Made by a program: the position numbers and the translations under genes | Source: Thermoproteota archaeon | Lineage (GTDB): Archaea; Thermoproteota; Thermoprotei_A; Sulfolobales; Ignisphaeraceae | Direction: 5' to 3' | DNA: 64,000 nucleotides | NCBI GenBank assembly: GCA_030550585.1 | Contig: JAUQPB010000005.1 | Location: 36,962 to 100,961, forward strand | Shown here: in pieces, positions 53,119-60,650 of the stretch | How the letters are laid out: every line of letters begins with the position of its first letter | Numbering within the stretch: the stretch's first letter is position 1 | The notes under the pieces: generated by a model | What the model saw: only the letters and a program-made list of their open reading frames with translations | What the model was told of the DNA's origin: nothing | The model's database searches: none

Positions 53119-53206
53119 GATTTTTATGGGGTTATACAAAGCTTTTTAGCTAGTATGGACACAATAATGGTGAAGAACACGTTGAGTAATTTTGCGGTGC
53201 CAGCAC

Positions 53207-54661
53207 TTGCCAGACTATCTGGTTACTGTGTCTGGCGAGTCCATACTCAAGTCTAGTAGGACTAGACCAAAGTTCTTCAATGCTCTAATTAGAAACATCT
53301 CCGATGCTGTTTCTAGAGCTGGTGGCAAGGTGGTTAACATTAGTGTTGTTGAGGCTAAAATACACCTTGTAACAGATGCCAATGTCATTAATGCCGTTTC
53401 CAGGGTTTTCGGCATCTACAGAGTTGGCAGGGTTCTTGTATACGAATTTAGAGATCTAAGCGATTTGGCTAGGTGGATAGCGGAGAACTCCAAAGAGGTT
53501 GTTATGGGGAGAAGATTTGCTGTAAGGGTTAAGAGAAGCGGTGTACACAGCTTCACATCAATCGACGTTGCTAGAGAGGCTGGGGCTCTCCTCAAACCAT
53601 TTTCATCTGGCGTTGATCTAGATAATCCTGAGGTCGTTGTTGAGGTAGAGGTGAGGGGCTCGAAGGCATTTCTATATAGAGACTCTGTCAAAGGGCCTGG
53701 CGGCCTCCCAACAGGAGTTGAGGGAAGGGCCCTCACACTTTTCTCAGGAGGCTTCGACTCCCCCATAGCAGCCTGGTACACTGCTAGAAGAGGTGTTGAG
53801 ATAGACTTTCTACATTTCATATTGGGGCCTCTAGAATCGACATACAACGCATTTACCGTTGCCAAAAAACTATCTCTTGATTGGCTCTATGGCTACAAAC
53901 CAAAGTTCATAGCAATAGACTTTAGAGATGTTGTAAAAGAGATTGTGGAGAAGGTTGATTGGAGCTATAGACAGGTTGTCCTAAGAGCTCTAATGTATCT
54001 AGCAGCATCAAAGATAGCTGAGGAGCTCGGCTACGACGCTATCGTAACTGGCGAGTCCCTTGGCCAAGCATCTAGCCAGACACTCAAGAATATAGCGGCT
54101 ATAGAGAGCTGTGTAAAGGTGTCTAAACCGATTCTAAGGCCGTTAATATCGTTTGACAAGGAGGAGATCATAGATTTGTCGAGGAGGCTAGGACTATACG
54201 AACTATCCTCAAAGGTTGTTGAAGCTTGTGCTATAGCCCCATCAAAAGTTGTGACAGCTACAACAGTGGATGCGTTGTCCAAGAGGCTTGAATCTATAGA
54301 CATGAGGATTGTTGAAGAGGCGCTGAAGAAGAGGATAGTTGTCAGCGTATTGGATGCCAGACCAGAAGATGTTATTCCAGAGACAGATATAGAGATAGAT
54401 TTCATACCAAGCAACGCAATTGTTATCGATGCTAGAAAAGAGGATACAGGTGGGCTACCCGTAGAGAGCGTCATCCCCCTAAGCAAGGTGGACTTCAACA
54501 ACATTCCCCAGGACAGACCCGTTGTCATAGTATGTGATACAGGTAGTCTAAGCTATGTGATAGCGAAAGAGCTTAGGGAAAAAGGCTTCAAGGCCTATAG
54601 TCTTCGCGGCGGGGCAAAGACCTGCAAAACTCTAGCAGAAAAATCCAGAGCAACACAGTAG
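53207..54661 (+). CDS. thiI: tRNA 4-thiouridine synthase with THUMP, PP-loop and rhodanese domains
   Basis: GE..LKS, SGGFDS, TGESLGQASSQTL.N, RPL...DKEEI, EAC and C-terminal VC..G..S...AYSL.GG. Confidence 0.93.
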   Translation: MPDYLVTVSGESILKSSRTRPKFFNALIRNISDAVSRAGGKVVNISVVEAKIHLVTDANVINAVSRVFGIYRVGRVLVYEFRDLSDLARWIAENSKEVVMGRRFAVRVKRSGVHSFTSIDVAREAGALLKPFSSGVDLDNPEVVVEVEVRGSKAFLYRDSVKGPGGLPTGVEGRALTLFSGGFDSPIAAWYTARRGVEIDFLHFILGPLESTYNAFTVAKKLSLDWLYGYKPKFIAIDFRDVVKEIVEKVDWSYRQVVLRALMYLAASKIAEELGYDAIVTGESLGQASSQTLKNIAAIESCVKVSKPILRPLISFDKEEIIDLSRRLGLYELSSKVVEACAIAPSKVVTATTVDALSKRLESIDMRIVEEALKKRIVVSVLDARPEDVIPETDIEIDFIPSNAIVIDARKEDTGGLPVESVIPLSKVDFNNIPQDRPVVIVCDTGSLSYVIAKELREKGFKAYSLRGGAKTCKTLAEKSRATQ

Positions 54662-54788
54662 AATTCCTCTCCTCCACTGGCTAGACAACATGCAACAACA
54701 AGCATCTACTCTATACCCAACTAACATGGTGCATGTAGATAAAACGCTTTTTTATGTTGCGATCCATCACGACTTCTGCAGACCTGTT

Positions 54789-55292
54789 ATGCAGTACAAG
54801 ATATCCCTCAAGCTCGTCACAGCGATAGTGATTGCAGCGACCTACGCATCTCTAGTCATAGTGCTACAGTCTATTAGCTTTGGACCAATCCAGGTTAGGG
54901 TAGCTGATATGCTATCCCCTATAACCTATGTCACAGGATTTGAGGGTGTTCTTGGCCTGACTCTAGGCACATTAATTGGAAATATTGTATCGCCTTATGG
55001 GATTTTTGATGTGGTTATAGGTACTCTATGCACATTTGTTTACAGCTCTATAAATTGGTTGCTTGGCAGGGTCTTTGGCTATAGAAAATGGCTGCTACCT
55101 GTAGTAGCCTTGGTGGACGCTCTTGTTGTAGGGATATTCATAGGGGTTATCCTACAAGGTGTCATTTTCAAAGCTGGCGAGCCCATATACCTATTCGCTT
55201 TGCTGACAGGCGAAAACCTTGTGGCCACAATACCTGGGGCCCTCCTACTCGTCCCACTTATTAGAAGGTATTACCAGAGATTAGCAAGATGA
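54789..55292 (+). CDS. queT: QueT-family ECF S component
   Basis: IAATY, ISFGPIQVRVAD.L and GLTLG..I.N..SP.G..D...G. Confidence 0.88.
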   Translation: MQYKISLKLVTAIVIAATYASLVIVLQSISFGPIQVRVADMLSPITYVTGFEGVLGLTLGTLIGNIVSPYGIFDVVIGTLCTFVYSSINWLLGRVFGYRKWLLPVVALVDALVVGIFIGVILQGVIFKAGEPIYLFALLTGENLVATIPGALLLVPLIRRYYQRLAR

Positions 55293-55372
55293 CTTAGCAG
55301 ACCATGGACTGCTGAACACCTCTATCAGCTTTTAAGCAAAGAATTTCCTGCGTTAGTGGATAGGCGGTTTAA

Positions 55373-56110
55373 TTGATTATAGAGACCAGAAATCTTAGGG
55401 TTTCTTTCAACGGCGTCGAGATATTGAGGGACATTTCGATAGCTTTTGATAGTGGTGTCCACATTGTGTTGGGTAGGAATGGAGCTGGCAAAACAACTTT
55501 TTTGAGGGCTCTGGCAAATCTAGTGAGGTTCGATGGCGATGTGCTTGTTGGGGGTAGGAGCGTTAAGAAGATGGGTAGAAGGGAGATTGCTATGCTGATT
55601 GGGTACTGCTGGCAGAACCCATACTACGGCTTTGTAGAGGCAACTGTAGAAGATGAGATAAGGGCTATCACCAGAATACTTGGGGTCTCAGGTGATTGGA
55701 GAATAGTCGAGCTTCTAGTGCCTAGAGAGTACATGGGTAGAGACCCGTCAACGCTTAGCGGTGGAGAGGCTAAAAGGGTTTCTATGGCCTCTATACTAGT
55801 TGCAGACCAGCCCATATGGCTTCTAGACGAGCCGTTCACATATCTCGATAGAGATGGTGTTGAGGCTGTTGTCAACCTAATCGACTATGGGAGGAGAAAG
55901 GGGAAGACAATAATTGTTACACTCCACGAGATATTCTACGCCAATCTCATAAAGCCAGACACATACGCAATCATAGATGGTGGCACAATAAAGTTTTTTG
56001 ATAGGTGGAGCAGTCTCAGCGATGAGGAGCTGGCCAAAGCGGGTCTGGTGCCAAGGGGTGTGATATGTGATACTCTCTGTGGTCCAAGAGGTCTTGGGGT
56101 ACAGAGTTAA
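55373..56110 (+). CDS. ECF/ABC ATPase
   Basis: GRNGAGKTT, QNP, LSGGE and LLDEPF. Confidence 0.88.
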   Translation: MIIETRNLRVSFNGVEILRDISIAFDSGVHIVLGRNGAGKTTFLRALANLVRFDGDVLVGGRSVKKMGRREIAMLIGYCWQNPYYGFVEATVEDEIRAITRILGVSGDWRIVELLVPREYMGRDPSTLSGGEAKRVSMASILVADQPIWLLDEPFTYLDRDGVEAVVNLIDYGRRKGKTIIVTLHEIFYANLIKPDTYAIIDGGTIKFFDRWSSLSDEELAKAGLVPRGVICDTLCGPRGLGVQS

Positions 56111-56642
56111 GGCACCGAGAATAGTGTTTTCAAAGTGGTTCTCAATAGCGAAGATAGCCTTGTTTATACTATCTATAGCAGTTCCGGTGGTGGCACCAAC
56201 AGCCGTTTCGCTTGGTCTCGTAGCATCTCTTGTAATACTCCTAGCCGTGTTGGGACTTAGGAGAAGCGCTGTATACACCGTCTTCACAGCCGCAATCCTC
56301 TATCTAATAATGTTTTCCACGGCCTTTCTACTCCACGGAGACTTGGAGAGGATAACTAGGCTAACTCTGTTGGCCTCATCATCGCTGTCAACAATAATAC
56401 TAATAGCATCGACAACAAAGCCGTCGATGCTTAGAAGATGGCCAACTCTATATCTGTTCTCAATAGTTTTTGCAAACACATTGAAAGAGGTTGTAGATAT
56501 TGCAACTGTTTATAGGGCTAGGGGCTCTGGGGGGCTAAGATATGTTTTACAAGTTGTGGTGGCCTCCATGGCGATGTCCATAGCCAGAACAAGCACACTC
56601 GTAGACTCGCTAAAGGCTAGAGGGATTGAGGTCACAGAGTAG
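56067..56642 (+). CDS. Putative ECF T component
   Basis: Hydrophobic protein with two ARG motifs (YRARG, LKARG). Confidence 0.75.
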   Translation: MILSVVQEVLGYRVKAPRIVFSKWFSIAKIALFILSIAVPVVAPTAVSLGLVASLVILLAVLGLRRSAVYTVFTAAILYLIMFSTAFLLHGDLERITRLTLLASSSLSTIILIASTTKPSMLRRWPTLYLFSIVFANTLKEVVDIATVYRARGSGGLRYVLQVVVASMAMSIARTSTLVDSLKARGIEVTE

Positions 56643-56654
56643 AATATCCAGTTT

Positions 56655-57392
56655 CTAATACATGTACTCTGTCTTGTCCTCTAATCCAGCCTCTCTAAAA
56701 GCTCTCTTTCTATTCAAACAGCTTTCACACCTACCACAATGCTTCTCAAAACCCTGGTAACAACTCCACGTCTCAAATATCAAGTCCCCGACAAGTTCAT
56801 AGCATTTTCTTATAACATCTCTCTTCCTCATCATCTCCATGCTGGGAGTCCATATGGATACCCTAGAAGAGTACTTTCTAAAGTGGCAGATTCTAAACGC
56901 GGCCTGGAGAGAGTGGAAACATTCTGGAGCGCAGTCTGGGTATTTAGGTCCCCAGTCTTCTGCGGGAGCAACATCATCGTATTGAGAGCCCAGAACAACA
57001 ACTACATTTGTATCCTCTTCCTCTGCAACGGTGTATGCATATGCTGTTGCTATAGTCGCCATAACAACGTTTCTAATTGGCACTACAACAGAAGGTCTAT
57101 ACTCCTCCTCGACAGCAACACTCTCATCTGTTAGCTGTGTCCCCCTCCAAAGCCTCTTCATGAAAGACATGTCCAGTATATGGATCTTTTCAACTGTTCC
57201 CCAGCCCCTTTCCTTTGCAACCCTATTAACCTTGTCAACAAGTCTCTTGACAGTTTCCATCTCTCTAAACCTAGCTTTGTGCCCATAGTCAAAGTAGAGA
57301 ACCTCTGCGTTGAACCCTTTTGACAGCCAGAAAACCATGCTACAGAAGCTGTCTGGCCCACCACTAACAACAGCTATAACCTTTGTCTTCAT
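56655..57392 (-). CDS. queC: 7-cyano-7-deazaguanine synthase
   Basis: SGGPDS, FDYG, VVP.RN, YPDC and TWSCY.G...HCG.C.SC..R..AF..AG..D. Confidence 0.93.
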   Translation of the reverse strand: MKTKVIAVVSGGPDSFCSMVFWLSKGFNAEVLYFDYGHKARFREMETVKRLVDKVNRVAKERGWGTVEKIHILDMSFMKRLWRGTQLTDESVAVEEEYRPSVVVPIRNVVMATIATAYAYTVAEEEDTNVVVVLGSQYDDVAPAEDWGPKYPDCAPECFHSLQAAFRICHFRKYSSRVSIWTPSMEMMRKRDVIRKCYELVGDLIFETWSCYQGFEKHCGRCESCLNRKRAFREAGLEDKTEYMY

Positions 57393-57433
57393 AAACGTGG
57401 CCACCTCAGCCGATATAGTCGTGTCTTTCATGT

Positions 57434-58592
57434 TTAGCATAGCTTATAAAGCTTTATCTTTCTCTTCCCCCTTGACACAACCTCGTAGCACACCTCTCCG
57501 TTTTTCTCCATAGACTTTAGAGCCTTGTAAACACCTCTTAATGTGTACTCTCCATTCTCTTTCCAAATCTCATAGGCAGTTGCAAGAGATTTCCTAGAGA
57601 GGGTCTCTACTATACGGCTCTTCAACAAACTGTGCCTCCCACTCCTCACAACATGTTTTATCCCGCCACTGAGTATAGCTATAGAATTGCCTATGTTCTC
57701 AGCTATGTAGTAGCTTATAGCTGATATCGGCTTGGCTTTGATGCCTCTTTGGGCAAGCGCTTTCAGCGCTTCGTATATCTCTTCATCAGATATCCTAACA
57801 GTTTTTATCTCCTGGCTTAGCCTAAGCAGATCCGGGGTGTTCTGAGACCCTGCAAGAACAGCTACAATGCTGTAGCTTGCGTCGAGCCCTGCTTTCCTCA
57901 GATCCTGAATACCCTTTAGAATTGAGTATGCAAGCAAACCCGTTTCAGCTGGAACCACAATACTTTCTACCCTAGTATTAGATTCATAGACTTCGAAGAC
58001 TATTGTCTTGAGCCCCTCAACAGTCAATGGATTGAAGTAGCTGATGTAGATAAGACTGTCTCCCCCGCACTGCAAAGACATGTTCTTCGCCAATCCAATG
58101 TTTTTCGACGCAAAATACATTAGATCATCTACTAGAACTTCAAAGAGGTTTTGTATCTCGACAGAGATTCTATTAGAGCCAATAGCATGCTCCATATAGT
58201 ACACAACAGATTTTGTGAAATCTTCGACATACTGAACAATAAACGACTTGTTGATGGCGTTGCCAAGGCTCATAACATGCGATACTATGACTGCTGAAGC
58301 GCGATCTGCGTAAGAGCCCGTTGGGTTCCTAGACTCATCTTTGATTAGAACGCCCCCGATTTTGTATATGGGTGTTAGAGCCTCGCCTAAGGAGAATTCT
58401 TTTCCAAAAGATGGTAGAAGGGATGAATATCTCCAAACACTAGGCTTAGCGGGGTCAACCCTAAACACAGGGTTTTCATAGTCTATAACGAGAAGACCTC
58501 CGCATACTGGGCAAGAGCATGTGTAAGGGGCTTCACGAAAAACAGTTTTGCAGTTTATGCATCGGAAAAAAATAATTTTTTCTATTGCTCAT
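57434..58592 (-). CDS. Threonine-synthase-fold protein lacking the PLP lysine, with N-terminal Zn ribbon and C-terminal wHTH; +1 frameshift near start
   Basis: RCINC...CPVCGG upstream of the ORF-track start, VWRY, SLGE..TP, KDE.RNPTGSYADR (K to A), EG.KT..FE and C-terminal TAYEIWK...GVYKALKSME..G. ATG 58592 overlaps the pdxT stop but is out of frame by one base. Confidence 0.8.
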
Positions 58593-59188
58593 TACCTCTT
58601 CACCAAGCCAATGAAGTATCTATACACCTTGTCATCTCCTGTGATCTCGGGGTGGAAGGTTAATGCGATTAGATTTCCCTGCTTTGCTGCAACACCAATT
58701 TTACCTATTTGTGGGTGTTCTATATATCCTGTTATCCTGGCCCCATTCCAAGCCTCGGCTATTCCAGGAGCTCTAATGAAAGCTACAACAACGTCTCCTA
58801 TCTCATCGATGTATACCCTGGCAACAAAGCTGTTTTTCTGGCGCCCGAAAATATTTCTGATTACGTTTATATCCATTAGTTCGAGTGTTGGCTGATTGGT
58901 CTCCCCCAAGACCCTGTCGAAAACCTTTTTAGCCATTACTATAGCCCCTGCGCATGTGCCCATAACCGGTGAACCGCTTCTCACAAATTCTCTGACTGCA
59001 TCAACCATTCCCTTTATCGCCATTAGTTTTCCTATTGTTGTAGATTCTCCCCCAGGTATTATCAAAGCATCTATGTTTCTCAGATCACTTGGTGTTTTAA
59101 CATATCGCGCTTCTATCCCCAGCCCCTTCAGCACTTGGTAGTGCTCTAGGTAATCTCCTTGCAGTGCTAAAACGCCTATCCTAGCCAC
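58592..59188 (-). CDS. pdxT: PLP synthase glutaminase subunit
   Basis: GVLALQG, PGGESTT, GTCAG, RN.FGRQ..SF, FIRAP and FHPE. Confidence 0.96.
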   Translation of the reverse strand: MARIGVLALQGDYLEHYQVLKGLGIEARYVKTPSDLRNIDALIIPGGESTTIGKLMAIKGMVDAVREFVRSGSPVMGTCAGAIVMAKKVFDRVLGETNQPTLELMDINVIRNIFGRQKNSFVARVYIDEIGDVVVAFIRAPGIAEAWNGARITGYIEHPQIGKIGVAAKQGNLIALTFHPEITGDDKVYRYFIGLVKR

Positions 59189-59191
59189 CTT

Positions 59192-60199
59192 CTACTCACC
59201 TCTAATCTGCATCAACTCCTCTGGTCTCAGCTTCCTAACATCGATTCCAACCATAGACACTTTCTCAGACACCATTTTCTGTGCCTCAACAACAGTCTCC
59301 GGATCATCGTAGAATGATGTAGCCAAAACTATTGCCCTTGCCCTCGCCTCTGGGTCACCGCTCTTGAATATGCCAGAGCCAACAAAAACGCCGTCTGCTC
59401 CAAGCCACATCATAAGAGCTGCATCGGCTGGTGTGGCTATGCCCCCAGCAGCAAAGTTTACTACGGGTAGTCTACCAAGTCTTGCTGTGAGCAATGCTAG
59501 TTCATATGGAACCTTATTCTCTTTGGCATAGACCCAGATAGCCTCGTGGTCTCCAGCCATATAGTATCCTCTAAGCGTTGCGATATCCCTGTTAACAAGC
59601 TTCATATGCTTAACAGCTTCAGCCACATTGCCTGTTCCCGGCTCCCCCTTTGTCCTAATCATCGATGCCCCCTCGTATATTCTTCTCAACGCCTCTGGCA
59701 AGCTTCTAGCCCCATTTACAAAAGGTGTTTTGAAATCCCATTTGTTTATATGGGCCTTTTCATCGACTGGCGTCAAAACCTCGCTTTCATCTATCAAGTC
59801 AACCCCTATCTCCTCGAGCAACCTAGCCTCCTCAGCATGCCCAATTCTACACTTTGCTGAAACAGGAATTGTTATAGAACTCATAACAGCTTCTATAACC
59901 CTCAAATCAGCTGTTCTAGCCACACCACCAGCTGCTCTAACATCGTATGGAAGCTTGTCCAAAACCATTACACCGACAGCACCAGCATCCTCAGCTATAG
60001 CAGCTTGCTTCTCGTTAGTGACATCCATTATGACCCCTCCCTTAAGCATAGATACAAAGCCGTATCTAACAAGCGGGGTCCCCTCTCTAATGGGTATTAC
60101 CTCTAGACCCTCCTCCCTAGCCCTATCCCTCAGCTCAAGTAGGCCGTATATGAGATCCCTAAGTTTCTCAAGCCAAACATACGAATCTGTCAACTTCAA
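59192..60199 (-). CDS. pdxS: PLP synthase lyase subunit
   Basis: [46 protein letters not shown] and FVGSGIFKS. Confidence 0.96.
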
Positions 60200-60291
60200 T
60201 GCAAACCAACCCAGAGCTGTCGTTAACATGGTTATGAATAATAAAATTTGCTGAACGTTCAATAAACATAACCCAAAATCGCAGAAGCCCC

Positions 60292-60361
60292 TTGAAATAT
60301 GTTTCAAACTCATTATCATAATTATTTTGAGAAAAACTTATTAACCTTGAAACAGGTTTCA
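60292..60361. promoter_or_regulatory. Paired palindromes in the divergent pdxS / 60378 promoter region
   Basis: TTGAAATATGTTTCAA (60292-60307) and TGAAACAGGTTTCA (60348-60361) flank a BRE/TATA-like GAAAAACTTATTAA. Confidence 0.55.
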
Positions 60362-60377
60362 GGTTCTGGCGACAAAA

Positions 60378-60650
60378 ATGAGTTGGTGGTGGAGCCCATA
60401 CCCAGGTAAAGGACCGTGGAGCTGGTTACCACCGCCACTAAGACCAGGTTGGTGGCTGGGCAGGGGATGGTGCTGGCTGCTGTGGTGGCCATACGTAACA
60501 TATTCATATCCATGGCCCTTCCCAGCAATTCCAGATCCAGAACTTGAACGCAGATATCTTGAGGAGATAAAGAGGTATTTATCAGACGTTGTCATAAGGG
60601 AGATCGATAGAAGGTTAGAGGTGCTTAGAGGAGAGAAGAAGACGAGCTAA
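60378..60650 (+). CDS. Small Trp/Pro/Gly-rich protein with C-terminal coiled coil (DUF5320-like)
   Basis: PG.GP.S.LPP..RPGW..GRG.CW, then ELERRYLEEIK...IDRRLE. Confidence 0.65.
   Translation: MSWWWSPYPGKGPWSWLPPPLRPGWWLGRGWCWLLWWPYVTYSYPWPFPAIPDPELERRYLEEIKRYLSDVVIREIDRRLEVLRGEKKTS

Follow-up and report, generated by a model that had tools for sequence, protein, structure and literature searches.

A lysine-less threonine synthase fold with a winged helix as a candidate regulator of vitamin B6 synthesis in Thermoproteota

Can a protein that resembles a biosynthetic enzyme serve instead to regulate the synthesis of vitamin B6? This question is raised by the gene that follows the pyridoxal 5'-phosphate (PLP) synthase genes pdxS and pdxT in a Thermoproteota archaeon of the Ignisphaeraceae (assembly GCA_030550585.1). 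The window, by which we mean the whole stretch of DNA that was analysed, comprises 64,000 nucleotides (contig JAUQPB010000005.1, positions 36,962 to 100,961 of the forward strand). A first-pass annotation, made from the sequence alone, had proposed that the product of this gene serves the archaeon as a one-component regulator of pdxST and uses a PLP-enzyme fold other than that of the bacterial regulators, and had suggested a survey of homologues and a structure prediction. The results described below support this proposal through the loss of the catalytic lysine, a fused winged helix-turn-helix (wHTH) domain, linkage to pdxST, the predicted fold and a co-occurring palindrome. We propose, with a probability of roughly 0.68, that the product is a one-component regulator which acts as a dimer and controls B6 synthesis and uptake, PdxR-like in its role but of fold type II. 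As that annotation had it, the candidate regulator lies directly after pdxT, and 60199, the coordinate at which it had ended the locus, is the start codon of pdxS, a TTG (MKLTDSY...) that was set by aligning the N-termini of 42 relatives.

57434 to 58588, minus strand: candidate regulator frame of 384 codons plus a stop codon, with a Zn ribbon, a threonine synthase (ThrC) fold without the lysine and a wHTH domain; 490 bits to the family profile.
58592 to 59188, minus strand: pdxT, the glutaminase subunit (TIGR03800, 195 bits; PF01174, 177 bits).
59192 to 60199, minus strand: pdxS, the lyase subunit of PLP synthase (NF003215, 456 bits; PF01680, 308 bits).

Inspection of the translated frame reveals, in order, a Zn ribbon, the motifs WRY, GEALTP and NPTGSYADR, the loop VPAETGLL and a C-terminal stretch that reads TAYEIWK...TLRGVYKALKSMEKNG...GKRKIKLYKLC. 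The ribbon, NPTGSYADR, VPAETGLL and the TAYEIWK stretch had been noticed previously, and translation confirms all of them in place.

58502 to 58561, minus strand: Zn ribbon CxxC-x12-CxxC (CINCKTVFREAPYTCSCPVC; C10, C13, C26 and C29), with all four cysteines invariant in a 49-sequence alignment.
58301 to 58327, minus strand: the Schiff-base motif, NPTGSYADR, where Ala94 occupies the position of the catalytic lysine, as read from the translation and the family alignment.
57932 to 57955, minus strand: VPAETGLL, the remodelled PLP-phosphate loop (VPVGNAGN in ThrC), with P213, T216 and G217 conserved.

With ThrC the protein shares the fold, the N-terminal Zn ribbon and the motifs WRY, GEGxTP, NPTGS and EG-KT. 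It differs from ThrC in that the Schiff-base lysine and the GNAGN loop are missing, the asparagine of the STGN loop is replaced by aspartate and the arginine of NPWR by threonine, and a wHTH has been added. Profile searches reflect this distance. The sole Pfam match of the candidate regulator is PALP (59 bits), and the best NCBIfam threonine synthase model, PRK05638, gives 103.8 bits against a cut-off of 421, while TIGR00260 gives 28.4 bits against a cut-off of 167.1. The same genome encodes a true ThrC (C7:196418-197614) that scores 306.9 bits with TIGR00260 and carries NPTGSFKDRG, ASTGNT and VPVGNAGN. This enzyme also bears a Zn ribbon, so that the wHTH is the sole added part and the ribbon does not represent a new fusion.

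The survey of homologues began from a search of 5.8 billion proteins, which returned 207 matches, and the analysis was carried out on the best 120 of these 207. At the Schiff-base position the 118 aligned family rows contain alanine (79), serine (25), valine (6), threonine (4), leucine (2), glycine (1) or methionine (1), and lysine in none; a distant member with arginine at this position (P0120) was excluded from the count. The STGN-loop asparagine of ThrC has become aspartate in 98 of the 120 rows (VEDF here), and the arginine of NPWRLEGQKT, which we take to be a ligand of the substrate phosphate, has become threonine in 98 of 120 (NPLT here). The GNAGN phosphate loop is replaced in the family by A-x-T-G-L (PAETG here). 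The replacement pocket residues D123, F124 and T189 are themselves conserved. Thr307, which aligns with the threonine of the C-terminal ATG motif of ThrC, is kept as threonine in 115 rows and as serine in the remaining 5. The phosphate loop had earlier been called degenerate; this holds for GNAGN, which has changed, but not for the Thr-Gly of the loop or for the threonine aligned with the ATG motif, which are conserved. A remodelling that is thorough yet conserved suggests that the candidate regulator is a pseudoenzyme of the ThrC fold. With the lysine gone, any ligand would have to be bound non-covalently, and a non-covalent vitamer ligand is plausible given the conservation of T307 and T216-G217, which, presumably as in ThrC, would contact the ring N1 and the phosphate of PLP.

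The C-terminal domain is present in 121 of 121 rows and the N-terminal region in 98 of 121, the others being short gene calls or fragments. Among the matches listed, the hosts include Ignisphaera, Desulfurococcaceae, Sulfolobales, Acidilobaceae, Pyrodictiaceae and Hyperthermus butylicus, and also Caldisphaera, Fervidicoccaceae, Thermofilum, Conexivisphaera and Methanomethyliaceae. The candidate regulator is thus, judged by sequence, a member of a conserved Thermoproteota family, whose members are labelled in the databases as "threonine synthase" or "PLP-dependent enzyme".

Structure prediction yielded a ThrC fold followed by a winged helix of the PadR/MarR kind. The AlphaFold model, computed with 49 family members, has a pLDDT of 92.8 and a pTM of 0.83; a low-confidence linker (residues 312-318) leads into a helix-helix-helix-strand-strand arrangement. 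The top Foldseek matches are the solved threonine synthases 2zsj, 6nmx and 1uim, at 18-19% identity, a root-mean-square deviation (rmsd) of about 3 Å and E values of 1e-13 to 1e-11. A sequence search of solved structures matched the Zn ribbon only (PolD DP2, E 0.0015) and returned no match for the remainder.

57437 to 57637, minus strand: C-terminal wHTH, residues 318-384, with the likely recognition helix TLRGVYKALKSM, as delimited by the domain model.

When residues 318-384 were modelled alone, with 38 sequences, the pLDDT was 93.6 and the topology H-H-H-beta-beta. With this domain model Foldseek returned, at TM scores of 0.75-0.88, Stf76 (pSSVx), a PadR-DNA complex, AspA (pNOB8), YodB, MecI and the DNA-binding domain of FUR; the A. 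fulgidus HTH protein 1sfx was also matched. The PadR-operator complex 5x11 aligns at a TM score of 0.80-0.82 and an rmsd of 2.6 Å, and many other wHTH families match equally well. Two cysteines, C367 in the first wing strand and C384 at the C-terminus, are invariant in the main clade of the family and lost in its variant and deep clades, both described below. In a homodimer model two chains pair symmetrically through residues 145-168 and 246-287 with a score of 0.52, compared with 0.00 for the best control; the score passes its mark, which 20 of 30 solved pairs and 1 of 23 single chains also attain. At least 81% of the contacts are shared between runs, with a partner pLDDT of 83 or more. Because enzymes of fold type II are known to be dimeric, this result may reflect a likeness to, or a memory of, solved structures. 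A dimer of this kind would fit the palindromic site described below.

The genomic context of the family was examined in a scan of one genome per species, in which 225 contigs contained relatives; the loci analysed are the best 80 of these 225. In 45 of the 80, pdxS and pdxT are immediately adjacent to the family gene on the same strand, 39 times in the order pdxS-pdxT-gene and 6 times as gene-pdxS-pdxT. The existence of two gene orders argues that this neighbourhood is under selection.

When the DNA that precedes the codons for the conserved N-terminus of PdxS was aligned for 36 loci and the window, a palindrome emerged. In the window it falls inside 60200-60377, the interval that the first-pass annotation had singled out.

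60251 to 60262, minus strand: operator-like palindrome TTGAACGTTCAG, with one mismatch to the consensus TTGAACGTTCAA, 51 nt upstream of the pdxS start codon.
60239 to 60247, minus strand: A/T-rich TATA-like box ATTTTATTA, about 4-6 nt past the palindrome, its promoter role suggested by its sequence.

The consensus, with flanks TA...TA(A), stands upstream of pdxS in all 37 regions examined, as an exact copy in 18, with a single mismatch in 13 and with two mismatches in 6, and in a shuffle control two or fewer mismatches were reached by 27 of 3,700 shuffled regions. The distance from the end of the palindrome to the pdxS start codon is 36-52 nt, with a median of 45 over the 37 promoters. In these promoters TTA(A/T) is conserved 7-10 nt past the palindrome, which we read as the TATA box, and many have GGTGA just before the start. 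The window site is the only one within one mismatch in the 1.76-Mb genome, where about 6 would be expected from composition. Nine linked loci fall outside the count of 37: two in which pdxS is cut by the end of the contig, two with partial PdxS matches, both of which carry the palindrome, and five that form a divergent clade. In the latter a variant stands at the same place, TTGAAGCTTCAA in three loci (L074, L075 and L077), TTGAAGCTTCAG in L076 and TTGTAGTTTCAG in L080, and the helix reads VY(T/A/S)(S/T)I where the main family has VYKAL. This covariation of site and helix comes from one clade and hence amounts to one event, so that it is weak evidence. The five promoters were read directly; an automatic search of whole loci for GC-centred palindrome variants with up to two mismatches gave scattered chance matches and was unusable.

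Does the palindrome belong to pdxS or to the candidate regulator? Six of the 35 loci in which pdxST is not adjacent to the family gene bear the palindrome with no pdxS in the locus. In two of these it lies between the family gene and a gene for an S-component of an energy-coupling factor (ECF) transporter (L006 and L010), in two before an operon of a major facilitator superfamily (MFS) transporter and the regulator (L042 and L043), and in two before the family gene itself (L050 and L051). In the genomes of L010 and L044, pdxS is located elsewhere, and these unlinked pdxS genes have copies of the palindrome with one mismatch.

Co-occurrence was then scored in 301 genomes of the class, 46 of which contain the exact palindrome; these genomes are related, and the counts are accordingly not independent. 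Genomes were called family-positive when they had a full-length profile match with E of 1e-100 or less (80 genomes) and family-negative when their ThrC-like matches had E of 1e-49 or more, or when there were none (217 genomes); the remaining 4 contained pieces only. The exact palindrome was found in 35 of the 80 family-positive and in 11 of the 217 family-negative genomes, the latter value being taken as the chance rate, and a reversed control pattern occurred in 16 of the 301. Among 26 sites fetched from family-positive genomes, 17 are before pdxS-pdxT, two of these with the regulator on another contig. The other nine comprise one before the regulator, seven before transporter genes (two ECF S-components, three pairs of substrate-binding protein (SBP) and permease, and two amino acid-polyamine-organocation (APC) permeases) and one that is unclear. 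The sites remote from the regulator in these genomes, before transporter genes and unlinked pdxST, are intergenic. The four family-negative sites that were inspected are all intragenic (in genes of the SRP54/FtsY type and for a ferredoxin, an epimerase and an ATP-binding cassette (ABC) ATPase).

A comparison within the genus, covering 17 genomes, leads in the same direction. In congeners with the gene, 6 of 6 pdxS loci carry the palindrome within two mismatches (five with an intact gene and one with a broken one), and in congeners that lack it the palindrome is found, at the same tolerance, before pdxS in none of 6 loci of 3.6 kb each. These observations suggest that the palindrome is tied to the candidate regulator gene rather than to pdxS. 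The six gene-less congeners (L123-L128) have a different type of pdxS, with 67-69% identity and the N-terminus ...WNTHLIEVGFDKIVEFFYRL..., and their upstream regions share a stretch rich in ATATCGAT. A second motif, ATATCGATTA, before the pdxS of these congeners was pursued; it occurs at 12 scattered sites in the present genome and led nowhere.

The transporters marked by the palindrome (L095-L100, L108, L118, L006, L010, L042 and L043) are an ECF S-component (PF07155), MFS transporters, an APC permease and SBP_bac_1 with a permease. On the strength of the shared site, these four unrelated transporter types may be considered candidate archaeal importers of vitamin B6.

How might such a regulator work? 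In the mechanism that we favour, the ThrC domain of fold type II, having lost catalysis, would act as a ligand sensor. The protein would dimerize through an enzyme-like interface and its two C-terminal winged helices would bind TTGAACGTTCAA just upstream of the TATA box and the B recognition element (BRE) of pdxS-pdxT and, elsewhere, of putative B6 uptake transporters. A B6 vitamer, either PLP or an unphosphorylated or aminated form, would be held non-covalently in the remodelled pocket, raise DNA binding and repress the promoter. With its gene downstream of pdxT, the regulator would also control its own expression. The shape of the predicted regulon, a biosynthetic operon together with transporters of unrelated families, is that of RbkR, the archaeal riboflavin kinase and regulator, and by this analogy a B6 vitamer would be the most likely ligand. 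At the window site the 3' flank of the palindrome abuts, and would overlap, the place where BRE is expected, and on this basis we lean slightly toward repression, by blocking of TFB/TBP, over activation.

Several rival explanations must be weighed against a B6-sensing regulator. The protein may regulate pdxST and the transporters while sensing a ligand other than B6, for example an amino acid, O-phosphohomoserine, a PLP-amino-acid aldimine or a substrate of PLP synthase, or it may, like bacterial PdxR, act as an activator under B6 scarcity. Its pocket is derived from that of an amino-acid-binding enzyme, the residues that replaced its ligands (D123, F124 and T189) are conserved, and PLP-dependent enzymes of amino acid metabolism adjoin family genes in two loci (Cys_Met_Meta_PP in L009 and Beta_elim_lyase in L007). 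For activation one may cite the placement of the palindrome upstream of the TATA-like box, since archaeal activators also bind upstream of TATA as a general rule. On the other hand, a regulon made up of PLP synthase and four unrelated transporter families is of the vitamin type rather than the amino acid type, and the NPWR arginine, our presumed substrate-phosphate residue, has been lost; we consider this explanation unlikely, though less so than the two that follow. Alternatively the protein could be an accessory of PLP synthase, a PLP acceptor, carrier or assembly factor that contacts PdxS/PdxT, and the palindrome would then belong to another factor. Its gene is usually directly downstream of pdxT after a short gap and co-transcribed, and a Lys-less fold could hold PLP non-covalently. 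Yet the family gene occurs where PdxS was not found, namely in 3 of the 5 genomes checked (L006, L042 and L062, whose completeness was not reported), and three congeners that are 89-99% complete hold the family gene and give no PdxS match. Furthermore, the wHTH is universal in the family, and the palindrome travels with the gene to transporter promoters and is absent before pdxS in the gene-less congeners. An accessory role is, for these reasons, very improbable. Still less credible is an enzyme that retains activity in the absence of the internal aldimine lysine and whose wHTH has a purpose other than the control of transcription. The intact fold and strongly conserved pocket would be in keeping with it, but lysine is absent from every aligned row, the asparagine loop, the phosphate loop and the presumed substrate-arginine position are all altered, and a true ThrC is encoded in the genome. 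The lysine is used by every characterised PLP enzyme of fold type II known to us.

A different kind of doubt concerns this strain alone. The ATG that overlaps the pdxT stop codon, with GGTGA, a Shine-Dalgarno-like site, nine bases upstream, is out of frame with the candidate regulator.

58566 to 58592, minus strand: start-codon problem, comprising the ATG at 58590-58592 and a run of T at 58566-58572, in which one extra T shifts the ATG out of frame.

The frame opened by this ATG stops after 19 codons (MSNRKNYFFPMHKLQNCFS*), and the long frame lies one base further on. There is no ATG, GTG or TTG in the long frame ahead of the Zn ribbon, and gene callers begin at the GTG at 58468, which gives 344 amino acids without the ribbon. 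In the sister strain G098, the nearest relative in the genus sample, the run has one T fewer and (GTG)SNGKNYFFRCINCK continues in frame into the Zn ribbon, like other family N-termini, and two other congeners have ordinary in-frame ATG starts. Logan contigs from four public hot-spring runs (three studies) all match the T-run length of the window; this assembly may derive from two of these. In one run the G098-like form, which has further deletions at 58445 and 58443, occurs alongside at similar depth. The shifted start is therefore real DNA and no obvious assembly slip: a sequencing or assembly error is made unlikely by the contigs of the four runs, which cannot exclude a rare variant. At position 58572 (plus strand) the window has A and all four runs have G, which leaves the frame unaffected.

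Should the gene in this strain then be regarded as a young pseudogene, or as the source of a truncated product only, with an unregulated pdxST operon? We take this to be a distinct possibility that falls well short of an even chance. It is favoured by the displaced ATG and by the sister copy (L131), which has at least two further frame breaks: the regulator gene of G098 is spread across three frames and contains a stop, and pdxT likewise falls into two pieces in that strain (residues 1-95 and 87-198). Against it, the 384-codon frame is otherwise open and keeps all the listed family-invariant residues, the GTG at 58468 could yield a 344-residue protein with the sensor and the wHTH, and a +1 slip of tRNA-Phe on UUU-C is conceivable. 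The product may thus arise by a +1 slip at UUU-UUU-C, or from the GTG at 58468 without the Zn ribbon, or there may be none. The pdxS of G098 is intact, with 96% identity, and the breakage of its pdxT and regulator may mean that in one strain de novo B6 synthesis is decaying together with its control.

Some of the data weigh against a B6-sensing regulator as the general role of the family. In 35 of the 80 loci there is no adjacent pdxST, and in 29 of these 35 no palindrome within one mismatch was found in the DNA of the locus; some of the 35 lie near the end of a contig, beyond which pdxST might be located. The neighbours at unlinked loci are varied: ECF S-component and ABC ATPase genes (L006 and L010), an MFS transporter gene directly upstream (L042 and L043), the PLP-dependent enzymes already mentioned, ThermoDBP-related proteins (six loci) and Macro/HAD genes (two loci). 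The Pfam PadR model (PF03551) matches the C-terminal domain below its gathering score (E 0.09, 13.2 bits compared with 27). A palindrome some 6 nt before the TATA-like box would suit either activation or repression. Across the family, position 215 in the phosphate loop is variable (E62 K19 R15 S9 ...), and we have rejected Glu215 as a mark of lost phosphate binding because of this variation between Glu and Lys/Arg, which permits no inference about phosphate binding from that residue. The shifted ATG, taken with the broken copy in G098, raises the prospect that the copy in the window is decaying. A deep clade (L062-L072, L078 and L079), at 33-36% identity, has the helix SLQGVYKAL, with Gln for Arg, and no Cys pair. 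Its flanking genes encode DUF1805, a protein with a B12-binding domain, an EamA transporter and an acyl-CoA dehydrogenase, and in one of its genomes (G004) there was no PdxS match and no palindrome within one mismatch. The helix, the neighbours and the missing pdxS and palindrome together imply that the function of the family is not uniform; the deep clade probably has another target, perhaps with a link to cobalamin.

The same genome (G000) encodes, outside the window, a second Lys-less protein that joins a ThrC fold to a wHTH (C7:295299-296714, plus strand; L085:1258-2673), of about 460 amino acids. Its motifs include NPSGTFIDRG, in which Ile replaces the lysine, and an STGD loop. It shares with the candidate regulator the three-part architecture, the loss of the lysine, the change of Asn to Asp and a homologous wHTH (IHLYEIWK...TLQTVYSHVKKL). 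It differs in that PALP gives 149 bits, in that its wHTH is seen by the FUR (E 7e-6) and PadR (7e-5) models, and in that it adjoins a biotin carboxylase gene whereas the candidate regulator adjoins pdxST. The PRK05638 "threonine synthase" model covers all 442 positions of its own length, including the wHTH end, at 174 bits against the cut-off of 421. Frames of about 430-480 amino acids that resemble this paralogue, with 130-170 bits to the family profile, exist in most of the 301 class genomes. The paralogue may represent another mislabelled family of regulators.

The remaining genes of the locus appear to stand apart from this system. On the minus strand four genes follow one another in the order pdxS, pdxT, the candidate regulator frame and a QueC-like gene.

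56655 to 57440, minus strand: QueC-like gene, the last of the apparent operon (PF06508, 126 bits), which overlaps the stop of the regulator by 7 nt.

In 0 of 80 related loci is a QueC-like gene found beside the family gene, which is consequently no conserved partner. For this reason, and with ThiI nearby in 2 of the 80 loci, the QueC-like, QueT, ThiI and ABC genes were rejected as partners of the system. The genes at 53192-56642 (plus strand), convergent with the QueC-like gene, encode ThiI (THUMP and rhodanese), a membrane protein of the QueT family, an ABC ATPase and a membrane protein without a Pfam match, possibly an ECF T component. Together they may form a salvage cluster for a queuosine or archaeosine precursor beside the B6 operon. 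On the other side, divergent from pdxS, an open reading frame of 90 amino acids (60378-60650, plus strand; MSWWWSPYPGKGPWSWLPPPLRPGWWLGRGWCWLLWWPY...) is extremely rich in Trp, Pro and Gly and has no Pfam match.

It is of interest to compare the candidate regulator with known one-component regulators of vitamin metabolism. The MocR proteins of Bacteria, PdxR among them, keep the Schiff-base lysine and bind PLP covalently. They have fold type I and an N-terminal wHTH of the GntR type, whereas the candidate regulator has the PALP fold type II, a C-terminal PadR/MarR-like wHTH and, in the Pfam scan, no GntR match; there is no sequence relationship between them, and the operator-like site is a single palindrome of 12-16 bp. 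What they would have in common is a one-component design in which a catalytically inactive PLP-enzyme fold is joined to a winged helix; PdxR controls pdxST, and MocR regulons often include transporters (PMC5320631 and PMC10450172). On the archaeal side a conserved palindrome upstream of pdxS co-occurs with the gene, and control of pdxST through it would be a likeness of function, not a mark of membership. PMC5320631 also states that MocR regulators are absent from Archaea. RbkR resembles the candidate regulator in combining an enzyme-type domain with a wHTH, in a regulon of biosynthesis, uptake and its own gene, and in the use of comparative genomics for its description, and it differs in being an active kinase (a "trigger enzyme"), while the candidate regulator is without catalytic residues and the fold, the vitamin and the operator are not the same (PMC5397151). 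In the present case the enzyme fold and the wHTH are accompanied by a predicted regulon of pdxST, ECF-S, MFS, APC and SBP/permease genes and the regulator's own promoter. An enzyme-type domain is likewise combined with a wHTH in ThiR, the ThiN-like thiamine regulator of Archaea, whose regulon is like that of RbkR. The candidate regulator falls outside MocR and ThrC proper and, by sequence, outside PadR as well, and appears to be a PdxR-like vitamin regulator derived from a dead enzyme. A literature search, with most subscription journals outside it, found no account of the family, of the motif or of a B6 regulator in Archaea, and the sole paper that contains the 12-mer of the palindrome concerns C. 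elegans.

In its most far-reaching form, the proposal is of a class of archaeal regulator that would be undescribed, in which a Lys-less ThrC fold would bind as a dimer at TATTGAACGTTCAATA next to the BRE/TATA of pdxST and sense a free B6 vitamer non-covalently, whose regulon would point to archaeal B6 importers and which, with the Lys-to-Ile paralogue, would belong to a wider superfamily of "dead-enzyme" transcription factors of fold type II, mislabelled in databases as threonine synthase. Whether all these elements hold together is, in our judgement, an even call. According to PMC9997740, a recent survey of B6 pathways, many organisms have B6 transporters that await identification. If the proposal is correct, the gap left in Archaea by MocR/PdxR would be filled by a convergent combination of a dead PLP enzyme, drawn from the other PLP fold, with a winged helix; the widespread annotation of these proteins as "threonine synthase" would be corrected; and a DNA motif would be at hand that marks candidate archaeal transporters of vitamin B6.

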